Source of the DNA: Nitrosomonas europaea
GTDB lineage: Bacteria; Pseudomonadota; Gammaproteobacteria; Burkholderiales; Nitrosomonadaceae
DNA: 10,231 bases
Assembly (NCBI RefSeq): GCF_900167395.1
Contig: NZ_FUWK01000060.1
Span: forward strand, 1 to 10,231
Direction of reading: 5' to 3'
This document shows, one piece after another, positions 1 to 10,231 of this stretch. The notes under the pieces are model-generated. The model saw only the letters and a program-made list of their open reading frames with translations. It was not told the DNA's origin and searched no databases. The position numbers and the translations under genes are program-made. Position 1 is the stretch's first letter. Each line of letters starts with the position of its first letter.

Positions 1-1
1 C

Positions 2-274
2 GAACATTCCAAAACGAAAGCCAATCATCCGCAGACCAACGGTATTTGCGAACGCTTTCACAAAACCATCTTGCAGGAGTTCTACCAGGTGACATTCCGG
101 CGCAAGATTTACCAGTCCATTGAAGAGTTACAACACGATCTGGATGATTGGATGGCGTACTACAACAGTGTGCGGACTCACCAGGGAAAAATGTGCTGTG
201 GACGCACCCCGATGCAAACTTTAATTGACGCAAAGGAGATATGGGACGATAAAATTACCGAATTGAATAACTGA
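2..274 (+). CDS. DDE transposase (integrase-core/rve superfamily), C-terminal fragment. The 5' end is outside the window.
   Basis: Frame 2 is open from the window edge and reads EHSKTKANHPQTNGICERFHKTILQEFYQVTFRRKIYQSIEELQHDLDDWMAYYNSVRTHQGKMCCGRTPMQTL, with a TGA stop at 272-274. HPQTNG-x-x-ERFH followed by YN-x-x-R-x-HQ is the conserved C-terminal signature of rve-type IS transposases. The TTG at 71 in the ORF track is not the real start. Confidence 0.88.
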   Translation, partial: EHSKTKANHPQTNGICERFHKTILQEFYQVTFRRKIYQSIEELQHDLDDWMAYYNSVRTHQGKMCCGRTPMQTLIDAKEIWDDKITELNN

Positions 275-322
275 ATCTGATCTAACAGGCACTCGTCAAA
301 TCGGGTAACTGTCAGATCAGAT
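275..322. repeat. Subterminal inverted repeat (hairpin) inside the IS, just after the transposase stop codon.
   Basis: ATCTGATCTAACAG (275-288) pairs with CTGTCAGATCAGAT (309-322), 13 of 14 complementary with a 20-nt loop. The mirror image is present in copy B at about 10046-10093. Confidence 0.5.
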
Positions 323-330
323 CTCAACTA

Positions 331-1254
331 CTACATATAACCTGATGCCCCAACAAACACATCAAAAGCGCGAAAATAGCGAACCAGGGGATATACCGAA
401 ACCGGCTGCACACCCTCAGGTAGTACAACATCTTTAATGGATATGGGATTATTCGCCCAGACAACTTCAAAGCCTGCCTGTTGTAACTGCTGTATCAGAC
501 CCTCCCCGATATTTTCGACATCGTTGATATTACCGGCTCCCAGGGAAAACAAAGCGTAACGTCCGTTCTCACTCAATCCCATCGCCCTTCTGGCCTGTAC
601 CCTATCCAGCAACTCCTCTTCCCTCAATAGACAAACGGGTGGAACACGTACCTGCGGGCAGTCGAAATCACTCTCCTCCCAGCCAGATTCATCACCCGCC
701 TCACCCGGCTTGATAATCAGGCTGAACATATTCTTCTGATGCGGAAATGATTTAGCCTTATCTGCCTGGTGCAAACCCCGATGCGACCAGACAATCTTTG
801 CCTTGCCATATTCTCTACAGGCATTAATAAATCCCTGATATGGCCAGGTACCATCAAAGACAATGACTGACGGACGAACATGCTCCAGTATCAGGCCAAG
901 GCGAAAACACAATTCACGATTCCAGTCTGCGGAACTTGTACGAGACCAGTTGGGCGAAACGAAGTAATCTGCTGGAAAACCCATTTCCTCGATAATTTCG
1001 ATCGCTGAAGCCAGCGAAAAAAACATGATCTCGACCTGACCCTGCAACTGACGTGCATAAGACAAACAACGGGATAAATGACCCATGCCGGCACCATTTG
1101 TGCAGACAAACAGGATAGTTGGCAACTTTACAAACTCCGGATAAAGCAGCATGCCAAATGCATGACTGCCAGATTGAAAAACAATTTCGGAGTTATACCA
1201 TAAGCAAATTTTCTGGGTATTTCGATAGACCGAGAAAGGCAATACAGATAACAC
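331..1254 (-). pseudogene. GT-B fold glycosyltransferase (MurG/GT28-like or COG4671-like), 3'-truncated by the IS insertion.
   Basis: The N-terminal loop ILFVCTNGAGMGHLSRCLSYARQL matches the G-x-G-H-x-x-R motif of MurG/PseG/COG4671-type GT-B enzymes. The ORF ends AFDVFVGASGYM*. The TG of the Met codon and the TAG stop (331-333) lie inside the IS terminus (TGTAG). The break falls in the conserved GYN(S/T)-x-x-E nucleotide-sugar-binding motif, so the rest of the C-terminal domain is missing. The start is ambiguous: GTG at 1254 has AAGGTG 10 nt upstream, while ATG at 1152 would leave a more typical short N-terminus (MLLYPEFVKLPTILF...). Confidence 0.72.
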
Positions 1255-1428
1255 CGATAGAAATCACCTTGCGCCGTCGCACAACTCGCATCGCTTCGAG
1301 AAGTGTCATTCTTCAACCGTCCATCTTGCCATCCCACACAATATACAAGACATTTTTCCCAATAGCCCTGTGTACACCATCGTATAAATCAGGAATAGAT
1401 TAACTATCATCATGTGCCCCAAACAGCT

Positions 1429-2910
1429 TTACGAATTTTCATGCGATTCTCTTTTTGTTAACTGCTGATACATCCCAAGCCATTTTCTGCCCCAATTTCG
1501 CATCCCGAGAAACTTTGAACGGGGCCGCTGATATAACAAATCTGATATTCCCAGTGCCGCAAAAGTAGCGATATCGCGTTTATTTGGCTCCTTATCGGAA
1601 ATAAAATAACGATTCAAAGGTTTCAACATTTCCTGCAAAGCTGTTTTGAATGGCTGAATCAGTTCGGGTGGCAGTAATTTAAGTGTGTACTGAAAAGAAC
1701 CCATACGCTTTCTCAGAATAGTAGCCAGGGCTTTTCGCATAAACGGGTCTGCCAGATACATTTCCAGTTCGCGATGAAATTCCGTAATGTGGCTAAAAGC
1801 TCCCGACCCGGCTCGATTATCAGTGGTAGAGCCTTGCCGACCATAGCGGTGATGATAAAAACTTACAGAGACCTGAATTGTTTTCTCTGCATAAAAATGT
1901 GACCAGACCGAGAAGCAGAAATCTTCAGAGAAATGGGTGCGTGGGAAATAAGCACCGCTACGAAGCAGAATACTTCTGGCATAAATACGATTCCATATAT
2001 TGGAAAAAAACGAACCCTCCAGCACGTTGGCCGGTTCATTTTCAGGAATCGTAAAGCATTTCTGGAGGAGCGATTCGGTCCTATCTGGATAATGGCGGGT
2101 AAATCCGGCAGCTGTCGCAATATCAGCACTCATCTGCTGCATTTCATACAAAGCGGACGTATATTCCCCCGGCGAAATCCAATCATCAGCATCAATAAAA
2201 CCGAATGTATCGGTTTGCACACTTGCCAAACCGATATTACGCGGCACGGCGGGCAAACCGCTCGCCTTGCAAATAGAGATATGATCAATAATTTCCGGAT
2301 ACTGACTGGCAAAGCCAGCAATTACGCCATGTGTATCATCCAATGAGCCATCATCGACCACAACGAGCGTTTTATCACTTTCGATAACCAGCGCACTCGC
2401 AAGACAATCCGTCAGATACAAGTCGCAATCATGCGCCGGAATAATCAGGGTAAGCCCCTGTTCTCCCGGTTGGCAAGATAGTGTGCTTTTTTGCATCTCC
2501 ATCGCAACAGGAGGTGTAAAAAACGGTAATACCTTACGTAAAATCTTGACGCCGCTCTCATCACAATCAACCGACAGCACTACCTGCGAGCGGTAACGCG
2601 CCAGCCAGCGCCCCTGTGCTTCGAGTACTGTCGCCGATTTAGCCCGACGGTTAAGAATCGCATTTACCGAAGGAAAACGGGCACAGTATTTTCTTAACCA
2701 GACCTCATCGTCCGCGCACCGGATATTTGCCACGAGCAGAATTTCTTCCGCGTTCGATTCATTCAGAAAAGATTGGAGCGTGTTATCTATCTGCTGCCGC
2801 TGCGCCAGATCAGCCAGTAAAAATATCAGCGTCTGGCCAGTCTCAGATTCAGATGAACTATTGCCCGTTTTACTTTCAGAAAAATCAACATGCTCTGATA
2901 GTGACTTCAT
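1429..2910 (-). CDS. Family 2 glycosyltransferase (GT-A fold) with an extra N-terminal region and an alpha-helical C-terminal extension.
   Basis: This is a 493-codon ORF. The canonical GT2 motif run spans aa 153-243: LTLIIPAHDCDLYLTDCLASAL, LVVVDDGSLDDT, PRNIGLA, FGFIDADD (DxD). Its ATG at 2910 lies 12 nt after the stop of the upstream gene, so the two are probably co-transcribed. Confidence 0.88.
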   Translation of the reverse strand: MKSLSEHVDFSESKTGNSSSESETGQTLIFLLADLAQRQQIDNTLQSFLNESNAEEILLVANIRCADDEVWLRKYCARFPSVNAILNRRAKSATVLEAQGRWLARYRSQVVLSVDCDESGVKILRKVLPFFTPPVAMEMQKSTLSCQPGEQGLTLIIPAHDCDLYLTDCLASALVIESDKTLVVVDDGSLDDTHGVIAGFASQYPEIIDHISICKASGLPAVPRNIGLASVQTDTFGFIDADDWISPGEYTSALYEMQQMSADIATAAGFTRHYPDRTESLLQKCFTIPENEPANVLEGSFFSNIWNRIYARSILLRSGAYFPRTHFSEDFCFSVWSHFYAEKTIQVSVSFYHHRYGRQGSTTDNRAGSGAFSHITEFHRELEMYLADPFMRKALATILRKRMGSFQYTLKLLPPELIQPFKTALQEMLKPLNRYFISDKEPNKRDIATFAALGISDLLYQRPRSKFLGMRNWGRKWLGMYQQLTKRESHENS

Positions 2911-2922
2911 TGCTACTATCCG

Positions 2923-5900
2923 TTACTGGCTGCTGACAGTATCTCCAGCCGCATCAGGCAAACGCCTTGTGATCAGTCTGCGCAAGCCGGTTCGAATGCG
3001 CTGGAATATACCGACATTCTCAGATTCTTCCACAACGTGGTCGAGTGCCAGTATTGCCTGCAACACACGCTCGCAGCATTGGCCGTCACGCCAGGCGAAA
3101 GTATTATGCATGCGTTTCGCATATTCATCAGAGGGCTGACAATCGCGTGCCAGCAAGTCTGCCATGGCAGTCAACACTTCCTGCTTTTCCGTGCACACCG
3201 GACCAAAACCGTCGCGGCGATAATCAAAATAGCCTTTCTGATACGAGTGAGCCCCAGAGAAAAATTCTTCTTCATCAAACTGCCAATAAACCACCGGGCG
3301 CTTGAGATAGGCCATTTCAAATGCAACGGAGGAGTAGTCGGTAATCAGCAATGCTGCTCGCTGGAAAAGTGTCTGAATACTGCCATCCATGTGTGACAAC
3401 ACCTCAATGCCGGCCGGCAAGTTGAACTGATCAAGATAAGATTGTATGTTGGCATGAGGAAAAAAGACTATCCGGTAACCCCGCTGTTGCGCCAATGCCA
3501 TAAGAGCCGGCTCAGACAGCAAACCTCCCCATGAGCGCGCGTAGAGCGTATCCATAAAGCCCTCACGCATGATACGCTCACTGCTCTTATCAATTAATTC
3601 ACCAAGTAAGTATTTACGCCAGGTAGGCATGATTAGAATCAATTTTTCTTTCTGCCCAGTACCCTGCAATAGGGCATCATGACGCGGGAAACCCGTAAGG
3701 ATGACTTCCTTGGAAGTGAATTTATACCGATTACCATCCTCGGCAAATGAGACCTGTTCAATTGGTGAAGCAGTTACAAGCAAATCGATACGTCTACTAT
3801 TCAACCAACGCGATAAGTCATCTTTGGTGACACCATGCTGCAAAAAAATAAATTGACGTCGCTTGATACCGCCATCAATGAAAGGGTCGACCACATAAGG
3901 AGCGGCTTGAGAGCTCACCATCCTGGTACATTCTTGCATCGCCAGCCGGTGTTCTGCACTACCAAAAGCAATCAATTGAAACCCTTCTGCCTGCAGGCGT
4001 GGCCAGTCATGCGATTCTTCACGTAACAGGAAATAAACAGGCAGTTGCGGCATAGCGCGACACACATAACGGTACAGATGCTCGGCGTTGTCATCCGCCT
4101 GCGTATCCCGGTCCATAAACAGCCAGGCGCCGGCATATTTCCCCTCGCGCACAGGCTGAAGCGCAGAAAAATGTTCGCGGATCGCCTGCACATCAATTGT
4201 TTTCCCCACCTGTTTGCCACCCATGGAAATACGCGCTGCTACATTATCCAGCCGTACTTCCAGTTTCCCTTTTTGGCTCAGCGGCAGCCAGACCCTGCGA
4301 TCCTGTACAAAAGTACGCTCAAGAAAATCATGCGCAGTGATTTTTTCAAATGCCGGCGCAACAATTTTTTGATTAACAATAAATTCCTCAGCAGGTTGTT
4401 CGCCATGGAAATAACGCAACAGTACCTGCTGCCTGGCCCAATCGAAACTTTCTACATAGACGATCTGGAAGGGAGGTTTTAATTGCTTGAATGCGGAAAG
4501 TATTCCGACTTTGTGAAAAAACCAGCAGCCAGCCAGCTCAAATTCCACAATGGTATCCGTTGTAATAACGGAAAACAGCTTATCCAAGTGAGCAAGAAAG
4601 CGCCCTTTTTGAGAAGGTGCAAGAAATGCAACTGTTTCCGAACGATTTACGATTTTTCTTAAATACCAGACAAGATCATAAAGTACGGTACGTTGTACAT
4701 ATTTTGGAACATTGTAGCCTCGTGCAATATAAGCATCAAACAATGCCTGATAACTGTAAATCATCACCTCATCAAAGCGTTCTTCTTTTTGCCAACTGAT
4801 ATCAAGCATAGAATTGGCTTCCGTAAAATTCCGATAGTAATAACGTGGCGCAACCAGAAAAGCCACTTGCTTGCTTTTAAGTGGCTGAAGATAACAGCCG
4901 ACAAAATGGCCATCCTCAAAATTGGGTTTGATCCGCTCATCAAATAACCGGCTTTGTTCTCGCAGTAAAGACAGCCTGAAAAAAGCAGAATTAACTGTTA
5001 ACTGCAGGTGTTTCTCCAGATCATCTGCAGCAAAAATACGATCACCTTTGGCAAACCGGTACTTTAATGGGTGGGTATCGCTGAAGCTGTCCTGATTTTC
5101 CCGATAAAAAATAAAATTGCATGAAAGCAGTGCTAATTTTTCAGCTGTCTTTTTGGCGGCTTGCTGTGCCAGGAAATCATCCACTTTCTGAAAATAATCG
5201 GGAGCGACGAAATCATCGGGATCAATAAAGGTCACCCATTCAGTATGTGCCTGTTGCAACCCCAAATTACGTGCACTGGCCTGACCCCCATTTTCTTTAT
5301 GCAAATACAGGATATTTTCCGGGTAACTTGCCTGCCAACGCCGGATAATATCTGCTGAATGATCAGTAGAACCATCATCTACCATGATCAGGTAAATATG
5401 GGAACGGAAATCCAGTGTCTGGCACGTCATCGAGTAGAAGAAATCATCCAGATAGGCGGCTACGTTATAAACAGCTGAAACAACTGTGTATTTTTCATGA
5501 CCCGCTGTATTGCCGGTTTTGCCAAGATCGGTAATCTGTTTATCAAACAACCTTAACCATCGGTTGCAGGGATCGGCTTTCAGCCCCTCATAAAAACCGA
5601 TTTCCACGTAATGCAGCAGCGGGTTGAGATCGGTTTCCAAAATTTCCGGATGTTGTTCCAGATAACGTGATGTATCAAAAAAAGGGCCAGGGTTTTTCCC
5701 CTCAGCGGCTCCATGATAAAAATAGTGATCAACCGGGTCTGCCCCGCTCTCCCTAACCTCAGGATATTGGGTAAAGTACCAGGCGGCATCAAACCAGCTG
5801 CATTGCCGCAAAACCCGGATGACCTTTTCAGCAGGATATTGTTTCAATTTTTCCAGTTCCCGGCCTGGCTCGCGCGCCAGTTTCGCTTCTTTTTGTAATC

Positions 5901-6576
5901 TGCCTGCCTGTCGTGTCTCAGAACTGCTGAAGGGTGTATCTGCCGGCAGCAACTCCAACATCGCGGCTGCTTCAATGACATCACCGGCTTCATGCAGTCT
6001 GAAAGCGAGCCATTTCAATCGGTAGGGTTTCGGGTCAAGCGCATATGCACGCCGCGCGGCTTCCGCGGCATGGTCACGTTTGTTTTGCATCAAATGCCGG
6101 GATAACGCCGTCCAGGCATTAGCCTGCATGACGGGTGAAATGGATGGCCTGGTCAGCAGTTTTTCAACTGCTGCAAACCCTTCTTCCTGATAAGTGGAAA
6201 TGACCTTGCCAAACCCTTTGCCCCCCAGCACCGCAGGTGGCTTTTTACGTACTGACTGGCGCCAGATAGCGAGAAGCTTTCCAGGCACCGATAACAATGT
6301 GCTCGGAGAATCCACAGCCTGGATCAGAATATTACCAAGCCGCACATTGAGCGCATTATGCGTTTCAAGATGATGCAATTGACGCTGAGCATCCACTAAT
6401 GCATGTAAACGCCGATTTTCAGCCACAACACTTACCAGTTTCTGATCAACCGATCTTCGGTATTCAAGCTCTCCCTGATCTTGAAACGATAAAGATTCAT
6501 CTGCTTCTTTCAACCCGCCTGATTGAAAGTTCTCAACGGTATCGGGAACCTTAAGTAAGTTTGTTGGCTGATTCAT
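2923..6576 (-). CDS. Multidomain glycopolymer synthase: N-terminal coiled-coil/helical region, GT2 glycosyltransferase domain and TagB/TagF-type CDP-glycerol (or CDP-ribitol) polyol-phosphate transferase domain.
   Basis: This is a 1217-codon ORF. Its ATG at 6576 has GGGAGA (rc of 6588-6593) 11 nt upstream. The GT2 motifs at about aa 363-455 (nt about 4970-5490) are YTVVSAVYNVAAYLDDFF, LIMVDDGSTDHS, GGQASARNLGL and FIDPDD. The Glyphos_transf-type motifs at about aa 815-1175 (nt about 3052-4134) are WLFMDRDTQADDNAEHLYRY, FLQHGV, IMPTWR, FFPH and LITDYSSVAFEMAYLKRPVVY. The linker region YYYRNFTEANS...VLYDLVWYLRK resembles the region that joins these two domains in bifunctional GT2/TagF-like proteins. 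Confidence 0.92.
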   Translation of the reverse strand: MNQPTNLLKVPDTVENFQSGGLKEADESLSFQDQGELEYRRSVDQKLVSVVAENRRLHALVDAQRQLHHLETHNALNVRLGNILIQAVDSPSTLLSVPGKLLAIWRQSVRKKPPAVLGGKGFGKVISTYQEEGFAAVEKLLTRPSISPVMQANAWTALSRHLMQNKRDHAAEAARRAYALDPKPYRLKWLAFRLHEAGDVIEAAAMLELLPADTPFSSSETRQAGRLQKEAKLAREPGRELEKLKQYPAEKVIRVLRQCSWFDAAWYFTQYPEVRESGADPVDHYFYHGAAEGKNPGPFFDTSRYLEQHPEILETDLNPLLHYVEIGFYEGLKADPCNRWLRLFDKQITDLGKTGNTAGHEKYTVVSAVYNVAAYLDDFFYSMTCQTLDFRSHIYLIMVDDGSTDHSADIIRRWQASYPENILYLHKENGGQASARNLGLQQAHTEWVTFIDPDDFVAPDYFQKVDDFLAQQAAKKTAEKLALLSCNFIFYRENQDSFSDTHPLKYRFAKGDRIFAADDLEKHLQLTVNSAFFRLSLLREQSRLFDERIKPNFEDGHFVGCYLQPLKSKQVAFLVAPRYYYRNFTEANSMLDISWQKEERFDEVMIYSYQALFDAYIARGYNVPKYVQRTVLYDLVWYLRKIVNRSETVAFLAPSQKGRFLAHLDKLFSVITTDTIVEFELAGCWFFHKVGILSAFKQLKPPFQIVYVESFDWARQQVLLRYFHGEQPAEEFIVNQKIVAPAFEKITAHDFLERTFVQDRRVWLPLSQKGKLEVRLDNVAARISMGGKQVGKTIDVQAIREHFSALQPVREGKYAGAWLFMDRDTQADDNAEHLYRYVCRAMPQLPVYFLLREESHDWPRLQAEGFQLIAFGSAEHRLAMQECTRMVSSQAAPYVVDPFIDGGIKRRQFIFLQHGVTKDDLSRWLNSRRIDLLVTASPIEQVSFAEDGNRYKFTSKEVILTGFPRHDALLQGTGQKEKLILIMPTWRKYLLGELIDKSSERIMREGFMDTLYARSWGGLLSEPALMALAQQRGYRIVFFPHANIQSYLDQFNLPAGIEVLSHMDGSIQTLFQRAALLITDYSSVAFEMAYLKRPVVYWQFDEEEFFSGAHSYQKGYFDYRRDGFGPVCTEKQEVLTAMADLLARDCQPSDEYAKRMHNTFAWRDGQCCERVLQAILALDHVVEESENVGIFQRIRTGLRRLITRRLPDAAGDTVSSQ

Positions 6577-6913
6577 TGTTTATTGTTTCTCCCATACTAA
6601 AAGACAGAATCACTTTTTGTTAATTGTTCACATTTATGTCATATCCTATTCCAGATGCTGGCTTTCAAATCAGGAGTAAATGCCGATATCCCCCCTGTTA
6701 TCGGATCTTTATTCAGCATGATCGTGAATAACCAAGGTGTTTTTGGCGTCTTTCTTTTATGCAATGCAGATAAAACCTTCTACCAGCTCCATTCCGGATG
6801 ACGAAATGGACGGTTTTAATGTGAGGGATGCAGATTAACGCAGAGGGAAGACGCTAAAAGCCGGGAAATAGCGTTGTTTTAAATGCTGTAGAGAAGAATT
6901 TAATATAAATACA

Positions 6914-6945
6914 TTGATAAAATATCAAAATATTTATATTATCAA
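6914..6945 (+). promoter_or_regulatory. Candidate sigma70 promoter with an overlapping palindromic operator for the higBA-like module.
   Basis: TTGATA (6914-6919), a 17-nt spacer, then TATTAT (6937-6942). The -35 element is the left arm of a perfect palindrome TTGATA-aaa-TATCAA (6914-6928), and a third TATCAA half-site lies at 6940-6945. This is a motif-only prediction in an AT-rich stretch. Confidence 0.35.
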
Positions 6946-7262
6946 ACTCATTAAATTCATTGGTTCCAGTCTTGATGATCTGAAAAATTTTCCGGAAGAA
7001 GCTCGCAAAGCAGTCGGATTCGAGCTTTTCGCGGTACAGAGGAGGGCTGATGCCATCTGATTTCAAACCAATGCTTGCCGTTGGGCCGGGGGCTTACGAG
7101 ATCAGGATTCACATAATGGGTGAGTGGCGCGTAATTTACGTGGCAAAAATGCAGGACACAATATATGTCCTGCATACATTTCAGAAGAAAACACAGAAAA
7201 CCAGCAAGCACGATCGTTATAGGCAAATCATAAAGGAGATAACCAATGGAAAAAATAACTGA
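6941..7262 (+). pseudogene. HigB/RelE-superfamily toxin of the phage Gp49-like (DUF891) type, frameshifted and lacking a canonical start codon.
   Basis: The N-terminal half, IKLIKFIGSSLDDLKNFPEEARKAVGFELFAVQR, is in frame 2 and hits TGA at 7058-7060. The C-terminal half, GLMPSDFKPMLAVGPGAYEIRIHIMGEWRVIYVAKMQDTIYVLHTFQKKTQKTSKHD, is in frame 0, which is closed upstream by TGA at 6981-6983. Removing one base near 7040-7043 (in cagAGGAGGGctg) joins them into the family consensus ...AVQRGLMPSDFKPM.... There is no ATG, GTG or TTG where the family start (MK..F.GSS) is expected. The codon at that position is ATC (6941), and the nearest in-frame TTG is at 6914. Confidence 0.62.
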
Positions 7263-7524
7263 CTCCAGCGGAAATATATTTACTGACCTGGGATTCAACC
7301 CGGAGCAATCAGCTATCTATACCCTGCGAGCAGAATTGATGAGCAATTTGCGCAAAACGATCCGGGAACGTAAATGGACTCAGGAAGAAGCTGCCAAAGT
7401 GCTTAACATTGGACAATCCCGCGTATCCGATCTGATGCGTGGCAAATGGGAAAAATTCAGCCTGGATATGCTCATCACTCTGGCGATCCGGGTCGGCAAA
7501 CGGATTGGGATTACTGTTGTATAG
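7246..7524 (+). CDS. higA: HigA-like XRE-family helix-turn-helix antitoxin (full-length copy).
   Basis: This is a 92-aa ORF. AAGGAG (7233-7238) lies 7 nt before the ATG, and the gene overlaps the toxin reading frame by 17 nt. The HTH core WTQEEAAKVLNIGQSRVSDLMRGKWEKFSLDMLITLA and the N-terminal SGNIFTDLGF match antitoxins paired with Gp49-type toxins. Confidence 0.85.
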   Translation: MEKITDSSGNIFTDLGFNPEQSAIYTLRAELMSNLRKTIRERKWTQEEAAKVLNIGQSRVSDLMRGKWEKFSLDMLITLAIRVGKRIGITVV

Positions 7525-7551
7525 GGAATTAGTACACAAGCTAAAAACAAA
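7283..7551. repeat. Direct repeat copy 1 (269 bp), covering higA codon 13 to 27 nt past the stop codon.
   Basis: It matches 8500-8768 at an offset of 1217 bp, with one mismatch found (G 7359 versus A 8576, synonymous ACG/ACA). Identity breaks at 7282/8499 and at 7552/8769. Confidence 0.95.
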
Positions 7552-7554
7552 ATA

Positions 7555-7959
7555 TCAAGCAAAGGGATTTTGAATTAGAAGCCGATCATCAATTATTTGG
7601 CTGTTCTGCATATCTTCTGAATAAAGGATCGTGCAATCAGCCGATAATGCTGCGGCGATGATCAATGCATCATATATCGAAAATCCATAGTGTTCCGCTA
7701 TCCGGAGCCCTTGATCATGTACTTCGACAGTAACCGGCACTACGGAACATATCATGCGTATGTGTGAAAGAAATTCCTGGATTTCAGCAAAGGACATGTT
7801 CAGTTTCCTCCGGGCCACACTTGCGAATTCATTGAGCACCTGAACACTGATAAAGCCGCCAGCTGCAATAGTGTTTTCCGCCCGAACAGATTTTGTTTCA
7901 TCTTCGGATAAAAGATACAGCAGGATATTCGTATCCAGAAAAGCACTATGATCTTTCAT
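7555..7959 (-). CDS. vapC: PIN-domain ribonuclease toxin (VapC-type).
   Basis: The sequence MKDHSAFLDTNILLYLL...QVLNEFASV...IYDALIIAAAL...LYSEDMQ carries the four acidic PIN residues in the usual order and spacing. The ATG at 7959 overlaps the vapB stop by 14 nt. The longer GTG start at 8004 would overlap vapB by 59 nt and is disfavoured. Confidence 0.85.
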   Translation of the reverse strand: MKDHSAFLDTNILLYLLSEDETKSVRAENTIAAGGFISVQVLNEFASVARRKLNMSFAEIQEFLSHIRMICSVVPVTVEVHDQGLRIAEHYGFSIYDALIIAAALSADCTILYSEDMQNSQIIDDRLLIQNPFA

Positions 7960-8179
7960 GCGCTTCAAGGCGATCAAATTTGAAGTCTTTCGGTAATCGC
8001 CCACGGTATTTTCTCAGTCGTTCAAGGATTTCACGGGCTTCCGGTGTTTTCATGATTTCAATGTCACGGGCACCTGCCACGTGAATTTCAATAGAATCAC
8101 CTTCCTTGAGATCAAGTATTTCAACAACTGATGCGGGTAATCTGACTGCCAGACTGTTGCCCCATTTTGAAACCTGCAT
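7946..8179 (-). CDS. vapB: AbrB/MazE/SpoVT-fold antitoxin (VapB-type).
   Basis: This is a 77-aa ORF. MQVSKWGNSLAVRLPASVVEILDLKEGDSIEI is the classic SpoVT/AbrB swapped-hairpin N-terminus. GGGAGA lies 8 nt upstream of the ATG at 8179, and the gene sits immediately upstream of the PIN gene and overlaps it. Confidence 0.86.
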   Translation of the reverse strand: MQVSKWGNSLAVRLPASVVEILDLKEGDSIEIHVAGARDIEIMKTPEAREILERLRKYRGRLPKDFKFDRLEAHERS

Positions 8180-8199
8180 TAAATAATCTCCCTTAAAAG

Positions 8200-8222
8200 A
8201 TATACAGTCTTCTAGTGTATAT
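8200..8222 (-). promoter_or_regulatory. Candidate VapB operator palindrome in the vapBC promoter region.
   Basis: ATATACA (8200-8206), a 9-nt spacer, then TGTATAT (8216-8222), with perfect 7-bp arms 21-43 nt upstream of the vapB ATG. On the minus strand, weak -35/-10-like hexamers (TTGAGG, 17 nt, TACACT) overlap it. This is a motif-only prediction. Confidence 0.35.
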
Positions 8223-8390
8223 TTTTATATTATTATCCTCAAGCATCGCCGATGGGTTTGCAGAGCCGTAGAATCATCAGGACATAGGGTTGCTTAAATG
8301 AGAGGCATTATTGGCCATCACCACTCAGCGTGCCGAATGACTGGTGCAACGATTCTCTGCACACACTGATCCTGAGCCGTTCACCGCCTC

Positions 8391-8741
8391 GTGGATCGGG
8401 TCAAACTACTGACGATGTTGCGTGACCGAATATCGCGGGAACTGGTCAGTATTGAAACTAAAAAGCAGGGATTCATTGCATTCACCCCAACCTACCAGGC
8501 TGACCTGGGATTCAACCCGGAGCAATCAGCTATCTATACCCTGCGAGCAGAATTGATGAGCAATTTGCGCAAAACAATCCGGGAACGTAAATGGACTCAG
8601 GAAGAAGCTGCCAAAGTGCTTAACATTGGACAATCCCGCGTATCCGATCTGATGCGTGGCAAATGGGAAAAATTCAGCCTGGATATGCTCATCACTCTGG
8701 CGATCCGGGTCGGCAAACGGATTGGGATTACTGTTGTATAG
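8391..8741 (+). CDS. Second HigA-like XRE HTH reading frame: a duplicated 3' portion fused to unrelated 5' sequence (chimera, possibly not expressed).
   Basis: From DLGFNPEQSAIY onward the protein is identical to 7246-7524. The first 36 codons (GTG 8391, or ATG 8415) are unrelated (…RISRELVSIETKKQGFIAFTPTYQA). There is no Shine-Dalgarno sequence before either start and no adjacent toxin gene. Confidence 0.45.
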   Translation: MDRVKLLTMLRDRISRELVSIETKKQGFIAFTPTYQADLGFNPEQSAIYTLRAELMSNLRKTIRERKWTQEEAAKVLNIGQSRVSDLMRGKWEKFSLDMLITLAIRVGKRIGITVV

Positions 8742-8768
8742 GGAATTAGTACACAAGCTAAAAACAAA
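8500..8768. repeat. Direct repeat copy 2 (269 bp).
   Basis: See copy 1. I count 268 of 269 identical by eye, supported by the identical + strand translations and a single R/C difference in the antisense ORF translations. Confidence 0.95.
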
Positions 8769-8841
8769 GTATAAAAAGATCGCCGGGAAAGGCGAAAACC
8801 AAAAGGATAAAACGCTGCCATGGCACCTGGAAACCGACCAG

Positions 8842-8870
8842 TTGACTAACCGGCATCCAAACCATAAAGT
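8842..8870 (+). promoter_or_regulatory. Candidate sigma70 promoter for the AbrB-type antitoxin / PIN toxin operon.
   Basis: TTGACT (8842-8847), a 17-nt spacer, then TAAAGT (8865-8870), lying 32 nt upstream of the antitoxin ATG. This is a motif-only prediction. Confidence 0.3.
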
Positions 8871-8901
8871 AAGGATTCCTTACATTGACGAGGTGTTCGA
8901 T

Positions 8902-9144
8902 ATGCTTGCAAAAATGACAGCAAAAAATCAGTTGACCCTGCCCAAGAGCGTAACAACAGCTGTTGGTGCCGGTGAGTATTTTGAAATAGAGGTACGTAAC
9001 GGACAAATAGTACTGACGCCGGTACGCATTCAGCGAGCCGATGCAGTGCGCGCCAAGCTGGCAGAGTTGGATCTGGGTGAACGAGATATTATGGATGCTG
9101 TTACCTGGGCGCGCCAACCGGTAAAAGGATCGGCAACTGAATGA
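8902..9144 (+). CDS. AbrB/MazE/SpoVT-family antitoxin.
   Basis: GAGG (8890-8893) lies 8 nt before the ATG at 8902. The sequence MLAKMTAKNQLTLPKSVTTAVGAGEYFEIEVRNGQIVLTPV matches the SpoVT/AbrB DNA-binding fold pattern. The 162-aa ORF in the track is an upstream extension that runs through the repeat and is not credible. Confidence 0.8.
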   Translation: MLAKMTAKNQLTLPKSVTTAVGAGEYFEIEVRNGQIVLTPVRIQRADAVRAKLAELDLGERDIMDAVTWARQPVKGSATE

Positions 9145-9145
9145 A

Positions 9146-9379
9146 CCTAAAAACCGCAGTTGATCGCTGATCAGCCCCTGGAAACCCTGATGGGTAGTGA
9201 GCTTGCTGCTTTCACTCATGCCAACCCGACGGGTGAGGCCGCTACGTACCCGATTACACGCCTGGCACGCTGTCTGGCTGCGTTGCTCCTCGTTGCAGGG
9301 AATAACCATGCGCCTCGTCGCGCCTTGCCAGGCAGTGCGCCAGACGCACACTCGGATACGTCCAACCGCGGTTTTTAGG
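9146..9379. mobile_element. MITE-like non-autonomous element (234 bp) inserted between the antitoxin and toxin genes.
   Basis: The terminal inverted repeats are CCTAAAAACCGCAGTTG (9146-9162) and CAACCGCGGTTTTTAGG (9363-9379), 16 of 17 complementary. A direct ATGAA duplication flanks them (9141-9145 and 9380-9384). Precise in-silico excision recreates an ATGA stop/start overlap. The element has no credible ORF, and an internal imperfect inverted repeat lies at 9261-9278 / 9327-9344 (14 of 18). Confidence 0.72.
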
Positions 9380-9817
9380 ATGAAAATGAGCAAAGCCGTC
9401 AGCCGGGTGGTATTGGATACAAATCTGGTGTTGTCGGCGCTGGTATTCCAGAGTAGCCGCCTCACACCCTTACGAAATTTATGGCAAACGGGACGAATCC
9501 ATCCTTTGATCTCTCGGGAAACTGCTGCAGAGTTGATTCGTGCTCTGACTTACCCCAAGTTCAAGCTCACTGCGAGCGAACAGGAAGAATTACTGGCAGA
9601 TTATCTGCCTTATTGTTTAACGGCTATCATTCCCAACCCTCCTCCCGTAACACCACCCTGCCGTGATCAGGCGGATATACCGTTTCTGCAATTGGCCTTG
9701 GCTGGCAAAGCAGATGTACTGGTCACTGGAGATAAGGATTTGCTGGTGCTGGCAGGAATGTTCGATTGCCGGATCCTGGCCGCTGACGTTTTTTTAACTG
9801 AGTTTGCAGGTTGTTGA
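9380..9817 (+). CDS. PIN-domain toxin of the PIN_3 / TIGR00305-like type.
   Basis: The sequence MKMSKAVSRVVLDTNLVLSALVF...ISRETAAELIRALTYPKF...CRDQADIPFLQLALAGKADVLVTGDKDLL matches the PIN_3 pattern (VLDTN, E, D-x-x-FL-x-LA, LVTGDKDL). The ATG at 9380 is the ancestral start inferred from the duplicated ATGAA. The second ATG at 9386 has AGGA 5 nt upstream and may be the start used now. The 206-aa track ORF extends back through the inserted element and is rejected. Confidence 0.82.
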   Translation: MKMSKAVSRVVLDTNLVLSALVFQSSRLTPLRNLWQTGRIHPLISRETAAELIRALTYPKFKLTASEQEELLADYLPYCLTAIIPNPPPVTPPCRDQADIPFLQLALAGKADVLVTGDKDLLVLAGMFDCRILAADVFLTEFAGC

Positions 9818-9957
9818 AAATATACTCTCCCCTCTCACGCCAGCGGAAGAGGGAAGCAGAACAAAGCAGAAACAAGATTGAAATAACCTCCTTTCTTATT
9901 TTGACTCACAGGGGAATCCCCACGATTCCAACTAGAAGAAAAACGATCTAGGATTAG

Positions 9958-9983
9958 ATAACAAAAGGCCCGCAGGAGCGGGC
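9958..9983 (-). terminator. Rho-independent terminator oriented for minus-strand transcription, possibly weakly bidirectional.
   Basis: GCCCGC (9968-9973), loop AGGA, then GCGGGC (9978-9983). On the minus strand the hairpin is followed by CTTTTGTTAT. On the plus strand it is followed only by TGGCGTTTG. Confidence 0.5.
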
Positions 9984-10032
9984 TGGCGTTTGAAGTAGGA
10001 AGGGTTACAACTGCGGCCTATGGAAATTTATT

Positions 10033-10231
10033 TGTAGTAGTTGAGATCTGATCTGACAGTTACCCGATTTGACGAGTGCCTGTTAGATCAGATTCAGTTA
10101 TTCAATTCGGTAATTTTATCGTCCCATATCTCCTTTGCGTCAATTAAAGTTTGCATCGGGGTGCGTCCACAGCACATTTTTCCCTGGTGAGTCCGCACAC
10201 TGTTGTAGTACGCCATCCAATCATCCAGATC
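10033..10231 (-). mobile_element. Insertion sequence copy B, right-hand end only, inverted relative to copy A.
   Basis: It is the reverse complement of 137-335, with no mismatch found by eye. It begins TGTAGTAGTTGAGATC at 10033. Confidence 0.9.
10094..10231 (-). CDS. DDE (rve) transposase, C-terminal fragment of copy B. The 5' end is outside the window.
   Basis: It is the mirror of 137-274. The stop codon TGA is the reverse complement of 10094-10096, and the frame is open to the window edge. Confidence 0.88.
   Translation of the reverse strand, partial: DLDDWMAYYNSVRTHQGKMCCGRTPMQTLIDAKEIWDDKITELNN

Follow-up and report, generated by a model that had tools for sequence, protein, structure and literature searches.

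We find that a 10,231-nt stretch of Nitrosomonas europaea DNA (contig NZ_FUWK01000060.1 of assembly GCF_900167395.1; hereafter the window) carries a vapBC toxin-antitoxin (TA) module between two direct copies of a 269-nt segment of the antitoxin gene higA that differ at a single base. We call the repeat A (copies A1 and A2, from left to right), the vapBC module B, and a second TA module to the right, composed of AbrB-like and PIN_3 genes, C. The explanation that we consider probable is that of a decaying chromosomal TA island in which A2 is an old segmental duplicate of higA, kept similar to A1 by gene conversion, and in which occasional crossovers between the copies reorder the modules. In this explanation A2 would have arisen as a duplicate of the last 80 higA codons together with 27 nt of 3' flank. 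Comparison of strains shows that the direct copies swap sequence by homologous recombination, gene conversion having nearly erased their differences in strain ATCC 19718. Crossovers between the copies would delete, duplicate or relocate the intervening module, as the order A-C-A-B-A in another strain suggests. The repeat would need no dedicated machinery and would serve as passive homology for general, presumably RecA-dependent, recombination. The feature is a known kind of genome plasticity, and it involves no new mechanism or gene family.

The repeat and its reality

A position-by-position comparison of A1 (7283-7551) with A2 (8500-8768) finds 269 matched nt at an offset of 1217, with one mismatch (7359 G, 8576 A) and 948 nt separating the copies. 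The mismatch lies at the third position of higA codon 38, where ACG and ACA both encode Thr. On the left the repeat begins at 7283, the second base of higA codon 13, and similarity ceases sharply at 7282/8499. On the right it ends at 7551, 27 nt beyond the higA TAG stop, followed by weak residual similarity (5/7 nt) and then none. This base-by-base comparison agrees with the initial annotation of the window, which had described a 269-bp A-B-A repeat with these breakpoints and a single synonymous difference. The island as a whole reads higB pseudogene, higA (A1), vapC<-vapB (B), spacer, A2 and module C, and its features up to the end of A2 are the following.

6941-7262, plus strand: higB (Gp49/RelE-type toxin) pseudogene, from Pfam Gp49 and tblastn matches
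7246-7524, plus strand: higA copy 1, which encodes an XRE/HTH_37 antitoxin of full length (92 aa) with native N-terminus (Pfam HTH_37, E=2e-20)
7283-7551, plus strand: repeat copy A1, from higA codon 13 to 27 nt beyond the stop
7555-7959, minus strand: vapC, PIN-domain toxin, 134 aa (Pfam PIN, E=7e-16)
7946-8179, minus strand: vapB, antitoxin of AbrB/MazE fold, 77 aa (Pfam MazE_antitoxin/AbrB, E=1e-13)
8180-8250, minus strand: vapBC leader with the Shine-Dalgarno (SD) sequence AAGGGAG and an operator-like inverted repeat, from direct sequence reading
8251-8450, no strand: non-coding spacer, conserved in all strains (six-frame translation; 98-99% identity across strains)
8451-8482, plus strand: what is left of C', which duplicates part of the AbrB/PIN_3 promoter region and has diverged from it, ~75% identical to 8855-8886
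8469-8499, plus strand: 31-nt leader found before every truncated copy in every strain, containing half of the hairpin GTTGGGGT-N11-ACCCCAAC
8500-8768, plus strand: repeat copy A2, a 5'-truncated higA fragment within the run-on GTG open reading frame (ORF) 8391-8741

Given that short-read assemblers break or mis-join at a 269-nt repeat, the second copy might have been a duplication made by assembly, and the initial annotation had asked that this be checked. All 10231 nt of the window, the single mismatch included, match the finished 2003 genome of N. europaea ATCC 19718 (AL954747.1, at ~1.49 Mb) at 100%, and a second, independent chromosome-level assembly (CM135170.1) is also 100% identical over all 10231 nt. 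A 2.43-Mb contig from a different strain is laid out alike, and its copies differ from each other at 7 positions. Because two chromosome-level assemblies agree to the base, the repeat is real, and an artefact of assembly is almost inconceivable as its source.

Our searches for the repeat elsewhere returned little. An exact 26-mer of the repeat had no match in genome contigs, where the source genome is apparently absent or masked, and matched two metagenome contigs only. A blastn search of plasmid and phage records gave nothing relevant to window positions 6900-9900, and literature text searches found no description of this repeat. At the loci of HigA relatives in the genomes of 34 other species, no second direct higA copy lies within +/-6 kb, and at one of these loci a full copy lies inverted. 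This arrangement is thus confined to this N. europaea lineage.

Age of the duplication and exchange between copies

The same order, higB'-A1-vapCB-spacer-A2-C, is found at other strains' loci (designated by L numbers): L001 (GCA_049306155.1), L003, L005 (GCA_021463265.1, the 2.43-Mb contig), L006 and L008/L013. The left and right repeat boundaries are identical to the base in 12/12 aligned copies, so that these related genomes share the same breakpoints, as a segmental duplication of single origin should. Within genomes, the copies differ at 1/269 positions in ATCC 19718, at 7/269 in the L001/L005 type and, for copy 1 versus copy 2, at 9/269 in L009. Since the breakpoints are the same across lineages and the copies are up to 7-9 nt apart, the duplication is to be judged not recent and, from these alignments, as older than the divergence of the N. 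europaea lineages sampled. The initial annotation had taken near identity as a sign of a recent event, a view contradicted by the breakpoints, which every retrieved N. europaea-lineage genome shares, and by the diverged copies among these genomes. One further locus, L007 (SRR23982699), keeps vapBC-A2-C and has higBA copy 1 cut down to a 38-nt internal remnant.

The repeat also varies more between strains than the island segments around it. Between-strain mismatches number 0-2 in vapB, 1-6 in vapC, 0 in the AbrB gene, 0 in the PIN_3 gene and 1-3 in the spacer, and segments neighbouring the repeat differ by ~0-1.5%. The repeat copies themselves show 2-10/269 differences between strains.

To examine exchange between the copies we tabulated the 13 variable sites of the 269-nt repeat. 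The copy that precedes vapBC carries 7372G, 7502A, 7538C and 7539G alike in L001, where it is copy 1, and in L009, where it is copy 2. Copy 1 of ATCC 19718 has none of these four variants and is the same as its own copy 2 except at 7359, matching it up to 12 nt from the boundary, while the adjoining vapC is near-identical across strains. Consequently the paralogues within ATCC 19718 are 1 nt apart and the orthologues (ATCC 19718 A1 versus L001 A1) 6 nt apart. All four allele combinations are present at the site pairs 7359/7372 and 7492/7502, and the copy-1 position of L019 carries 7425G and 7446G, variants seen at copy 2 in L001. Paralogues that are closer than orthologues, together with variants shared across positions, are the pattern of concerted evolution. 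These haplotypes point to exchange between the copies, by gene conversion or by double crossover; in ATCC 19718 the pre-vapBC haplotype has been overwritten by that of the other copy. The mosaics bear out the initial annotation's suggestion of ongoing gene conversion, and such exchange explains the near identity in the type strain without a recent event.

Conversion between copies is also what one would expect if the island had begun with two old adjacent higBA paralogues, the second of which lost its toxin and N-terminus while the remainder was homogenised. TA islands commonly contain paralogous modules, N. europaea has been reported to have TA loci in clusters and two higA genes that are orphans (PMC2374986), and copy 2 of L009 is the most diverged, with 9-12 differences. 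Three observations make this history improbable. Homology stops at one and the same base at either end, in every copy and every strain, the 27-nt tail included, and such uniform ends are unexpected from repeated independent conversion tracts. No higB remnant is present upstream of any truncated copy. Finally, the truncated copies share 31-42 nt of non-higA sequence directly upstream (ending ...GGATTCATTGCATTCACCCCAACCTACCAGG before the CTGACC of the repeat), a common leader which argues that they derive from one another.

Module order, junction contigs and known systems

Support for reordering comes from L009 (ERZ27309503, k141_27252), which in the orientation of the window reads higB - A - C - 96-nt link - A - vapCB - spacer - C' - Y - A, where Y is a sequence described below and the third copy is cut at window position 7485 by an IS3-family insertion sequence (IS). 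Assembly at k=141 yielded the order A-C-A-B-A in five contigs, which come from several samples (L087/L088). The middle copy has enough single-nucleotide polymorphisms (SNPs) for resolution at this k, and the outer copies are told apart by the 7359 SNP and the IS junction; we therefore accept the order. The permuted arrangement supports recombination at the copies, being the product expected of excision and re-insertion or of unequal exchange. The initial annotation had proposed that TA modules here recombine with an antitoxin fragment as portable homology, and both the three-copy permuted allele and the haplotype mosaics agree with it.

A different history was implied by the same annotation, namely recent Campbell-type integration of a circle, composed of vapBC and a higA fragment, into a single resident higA, from which it could be excised again as a 1217-bp circle. 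The A-B-A topology is what a single crossover leaves, and in L009 module C directly follows higBA while a truncated copy precedes vapBC elsewhere. In addition, some contigs join higB->A->C, as a deletion allele would (L014, L020, L073), and others join spacer->A->B, as a circle or tandem array would, with a period of 1217: L033, whose ends overlap by 99 nt, L080, a closed loop with a 30-nt overlap, and L081-84. Every one of these junction contigs comes from a de Bruijn short-read assembly with k of 31-141, below the 269 nt of the repeat. In project PRJEB12287, 59 reference genomes make up a mock community (PMC4787001). The contigs L081-86 and L016 derive from it and are 99.7-100% identical to the window, pointing to type-strain DNA; the six contigs L081-86, supposedly from one DNA, give both traversals, the spacer being continued by A->B in some and by A->C in others. 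Given k below 269 and the mock-community origin, we count the junction contigs neither for nor against excision. We examined them as evidence of excision and rejected them, since the two junctions are two wrong paths through the repeat. The chromosome-level and megabase contigs all read A1-B-A2-C, no plasmid or phage record carries the module, and the same breakpoints in all lineages with copies up to 7-9 differences apart show that the event was not recent. We hold recent integration of a circle to be quite improbable.

These contigs carry a warning for other work. From presumed type-strain DNA in a mock community, short-read assemblers yield an apparent "deletion allele" and an apparent "1217-bp circle", both false, and work on circular elements or structural variants may be misled by them.

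A bolder version of our proposal, which we consider unlikely, is that the 269-nt fragment and its hairpin leader form a portable homology block, with TA modules excising as small circles and re-inserting at other copies. If this were true, the island would be a recombinase-independent, RecA-driven "cassette array" for TA modules with A-C-A-B-A as one of its products, and low-frequency 1217-bp circles would be expected in cultures of the type strain.

To return to the explanation that we favor, an old duplicate maintained by conversion, a number of points weigh against it. The case for conversion draws on only ~13 variable sites, and import of diverged alleles from other strains may account for part of the mosaic; the 3' part of higB beside A1 differs at 13/113 nt between the window and L001. 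The copies of L008/L013 show zero differences, which we set aside as evidence for conversion because an assembler may reuse one repeat edge. The three-copy allele comes from one metagenomic study and probably from one strain, and the contigs that would suggest excision, duplication or an empty site all come from short-read assemblies. Lastly, A2 may go back to a dispersed duplication, to an insertion of Campbell type in the distant past or to an old paralogue.

Dispersed duplicates such as Salmonella tufA/tufB and the rRNA operons undergo concerted evolution by RecA-dependent gene conversion. The island resembles them in that direct copies are closer than orthologues, haplotypes are mosaic, and crossovers delete or duplicate the intervening DNA. 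It is unlike them in that one copy is truncated, apparently non-coding and 269 nt long, and in that the copies lie 948 bp apart around a self-contained TA module. Integron and superintegron arrays of Vibrio carry TA cassettes, and here too TA modules are discrete units between a recurring sequence, in an order that depends on the strain. The recurring sequence in our case is a 269-nt gene fragment rather than attC, and exchange is best explained by homologous recombination. The intI gene and attC sites that mark an integron cassette array are missing from the island; no intI integrase is present in the gene tables of the 20-kb loci, where the rve-domain genes are IS transposases only.

With Campbell integrants and amplifiable units flanked by direct repeats the island shares the A-B-A topology, from which A+B would be expected to loop out (1217 bp) and to amplify in tandem. 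It differs from them in that no donor replicon was found among plasmid and phage records, in that neither an empty site nor a circle could be verified and in that the structure is fixed across the lineage. Orphan antitoxins and decayed TA loci offer the last comparison, since both higA copies are without a working toxin and the island contains pseudogenes, an IS and a miniature inverted-repeat transposable element (MITE). For N. europaea, TA loci in clusters and "two orphan higA genes" have been described (PMC2374986), and the identity of these genes with A1 and A2 could not be confirmed; unlike our analysis, that report describes no near-identical direct repeat bracketing vapBC.

We think that the island is of interest as a sequence-resolved example of module rearrangement in a chromosomal TA island without mobile-element machinery. 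A gene fragment that remains from an old duplication would suffice as homology for converting the copies and for deleting, duplicating or moving the module beside it.

Genes of the island and its surroundings

The toxin gene upstream of higA is broken. In the window, higB has lost its start codon (Met1->Ile, ATC at 6941), is shifted in frame by +1 near 7043 and, compared with other strains, has 6 codons deleted. The Pfam Gp49 profile is covered only at positions 26-81, in ORF 7050-7262, and tblastn with an intact 105-aa HigB from a prophage of N. eutropha C91 aligns in two frames (6941-7042 and 7044-7238). In L001, L008, L019 and L032, 41 codons of the 3' end are left, with a 5' deletion in the L001 type, and in L009 the gene is in a single frame with the ATG absent. 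Thus higB is defective in every strain examined, with a lesion that differs between lineages, and it seems that the toxin was inactivated either several times or step by step, with higA remaining intact. Of the components of a HigBA module, copy 1 supplies an XRE/HTH_37 antitoxin of ~92-100 aa, and an intact overlapping upstream toxin gene is lacking. Its HigA has 762 homologues at E<=1e-10, hundreds of which (92-100 aa) carry the same N-terminal motif. The initial annotation missed that the higB pseudogene leaves copy 1 an orphan, and with higB pseudogenised both higA copies are orphans.

The nearest intact higBA pair is that of the N. eutropha C91 prophage, with a HigB of 105 aa and a HigA that is 85% identical. 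This pair lies at 5677-6279 of L023 (CP000450.1, ~1.557 Mb), between a VapE-like primase gene and genes for CII and an S24 repressor, and its prophage location fits a phage origin of the higBA module. In N. eutropha and other Nitrosomonas, the sequence downstream of the higA homologues diverges right after the stop codon, so it cannot show whether the A->B or the A->C junction is ancestral.

As had been noted for the window from its letters alone, copy 1 has the native N-terminus and copy 2 is fused to unrelated 5' sequence, with neither an SD nor a partner toxin. The HTH_37 domain of copy 2 is complete and its native N-terminus missing. Its ORF (8391-8741) has 116 codons and a GTG start, and the first 36 codons are unrelated to HigA. 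ORF calls around copy 2 in the different strains are 116, 124, 120, 115, 121 and 108 aa, the N-terminal extension being variable. The 27-nt non-coding tail of the repeat is as conserved as the coding part. Copy 2 of L009 carries L35P, M64I and R86Q, and the copy in L033 is frameshifted. Based on the absent SD, the strain-variable extension, the equally conserved tail and the lesions in single copies, A2 is probably a non-functional segment, not a gene.

These same data bear on a reading in which selection keeps copy 2 near-identical because it encodes a functional truncated HigA, either a regulator of the AbrB/PIN_3 operon or an anti-addiction antitoxin against a phage HigB. The complete HTH_37 domain, an open reading frame in most strains, the related intact higBA pair on the N. 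eutropha prophage and the synonymous nature of about half of the coding variants are all consistent with it. Set against them are the missing SD, the strain-dependent N-terminal extension, the conservation of the tail, the three substitutions in L009 copy 2, the IS that interrupts L009 copy 3 and the frameshift in L033, and we give selection on a truncated HigA very little credence.

The module between the copies is in a different state. VapC has the acidic residues D9, E44, D97 and D116 of a PIN toxin, and its gene overlaps that of the AbrB/MazE antitoxin VapB by 14 nt, the make-up of a VapBC module. The vapC gene is convergent with higA, and its stop codon lies 3 nt past the repeat end. Across strains vapC has 1-6 substitutions, mostly synonymous, and vapB is identical or changed only synonymously in all of them; the exact VapB protein occurs in 134 indexed blocks of the searched collection. 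Upstream of vapB, an operator-like inverted repeat, ATATACAG-N7-GTGTATAT, spans 8200-8222. A consensus promoter and terminator scan gave counts within shuffle expectation, with no call above shuffle in the vapBC leader. The PIN and MazE matches, the SD and the inverted repeat agree with an earlier description of an intact vapBC with its own operator region, and vapBC looks functional, being intact in all strains with mostly synonymous changes.

Six-frame translation gives no credible ORF in 8180-8499 or in the longer spacer of other strains. The initial annotation had suggested a search for the source locus of 8223-8499, and this recovered only the same locus. What the annotation missed was that part of the AbrB/PIN_3 module had been duplicated upstream of copy 2, where a remnant of the duplicate persists. 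In L001, L008 and L009 the spacer contains the full C', 115 nt that are 90% identical to window 8855-8969 (9615-9729 in L001) and comprise the module C promoter and the first 22 codons, followed by 123 nt of unrelated sequence (Y). In the window and in L007, 220 nt of C'/Y are deleted between GGATTC repeats, the window repeat being at 8470-8475. Taken together, C', A2 and the leader mean that the locus holds nested partial duplications.

The leader of L009 copy 2 contains the perfect, intact hairpin GTTGGGGT-N11-ACCCCAAC. The hairpin lies at 8465-8491 in the window, at 1779-1818 in L009 and at 7644-7670 in L027. L027/L034, from a different species of Nitrosomonas, contain a 93% match to it; an AbrB/MazE gene lies ~70 nt downstream of this match, and the operator palindrome of that gene, GTAAGGAATCCTTAC, is similar to the palindrome of module C. 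Candidate roles for the hairpin leader are a REP-like (repetitive extragenic palindromic) element, a terminator or a recombination hotspot.

To the right of A2, module C and its upstream region comprise four features.

8769-8901, plus strand: intergenic region upstream of the AbrB/PIN_3 module (motif comparison, promoter scan)
8902-9144, plus strand: AbrB-like antitoxin gene of module C, 80 aa (weak Pfam MazE_antitoxin and NCBIfam AbrB matches)
9146-9379, plus strand: MITE-like insertion, 234 nt, GC-rich, with terminal inverted repeats CCTAAAAACCGCAG / CCGCGGTTTTTAGG
9386-9817, plus strand: toxin gene of module C, PIN_3 family, 143 aa (Pfam PIN_3, E=1e-20; NCBIfam TIGR00305, E=1e-16)

Upstream of module C we find a promoter-like site at 8842-8870 and a perfect palindrome, GTAAGGATTCCTTAC, at 8869-8883, and the AbrB gene is 100% conserved across strains. 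A 61-nt motif (8773-8833) with the hairpin CGCCGGGAAAGGCG begins 4 nt past the right end of copy 2 and is found again, 89-95% identical, ~3.5 kb to the right of the window (L004 4341-4405), a site of this genome that is otherwise unrelated.

The MITE is flanked by a 5-nt duplication, ATGAA, at 9141-9145 and 9380-9384. It has inserted exactly where the stop and start codons of the AbrB-like and PIN_3 genes overlap (ATGA), and thereby uncouples the toxin from the antitoxin. The site is empty in L009, and in L027 and L034, from a different species of Nitrosomonas, a copy with 87% identity lies beside an MNT/HepT module. The element is strongly structured (fold z-score -4.85), and an Rfam scan of 6500-10231 gave chance miRNA matches only.

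The ends of the window (1-340 and 10028-10231) are inverted IS copies encoding an rve/HTH_28-29 transposase, 204 nt of which are 100% complementary, and they enclose 9.7 kb with glycosyltransferase genes and the TA island. In other strains the IS is absent at these window-edge sites, and a ParE-type module is found to the right instead. The polysaccharide and glycosyltransferase genes left of the island (window 331-6576) are wholly different in three strain groups, with products of 1217/493/307 aa in the window, 620/472/403/680 aa in the L001 type and 302/1498/618 aa in L009. Homology between the strain groups restarts only at 6740-6784 and 7133, and the TA island is thus the border of a horizontally swapped, strain-variable glycan/polysaccharide gene cluster.

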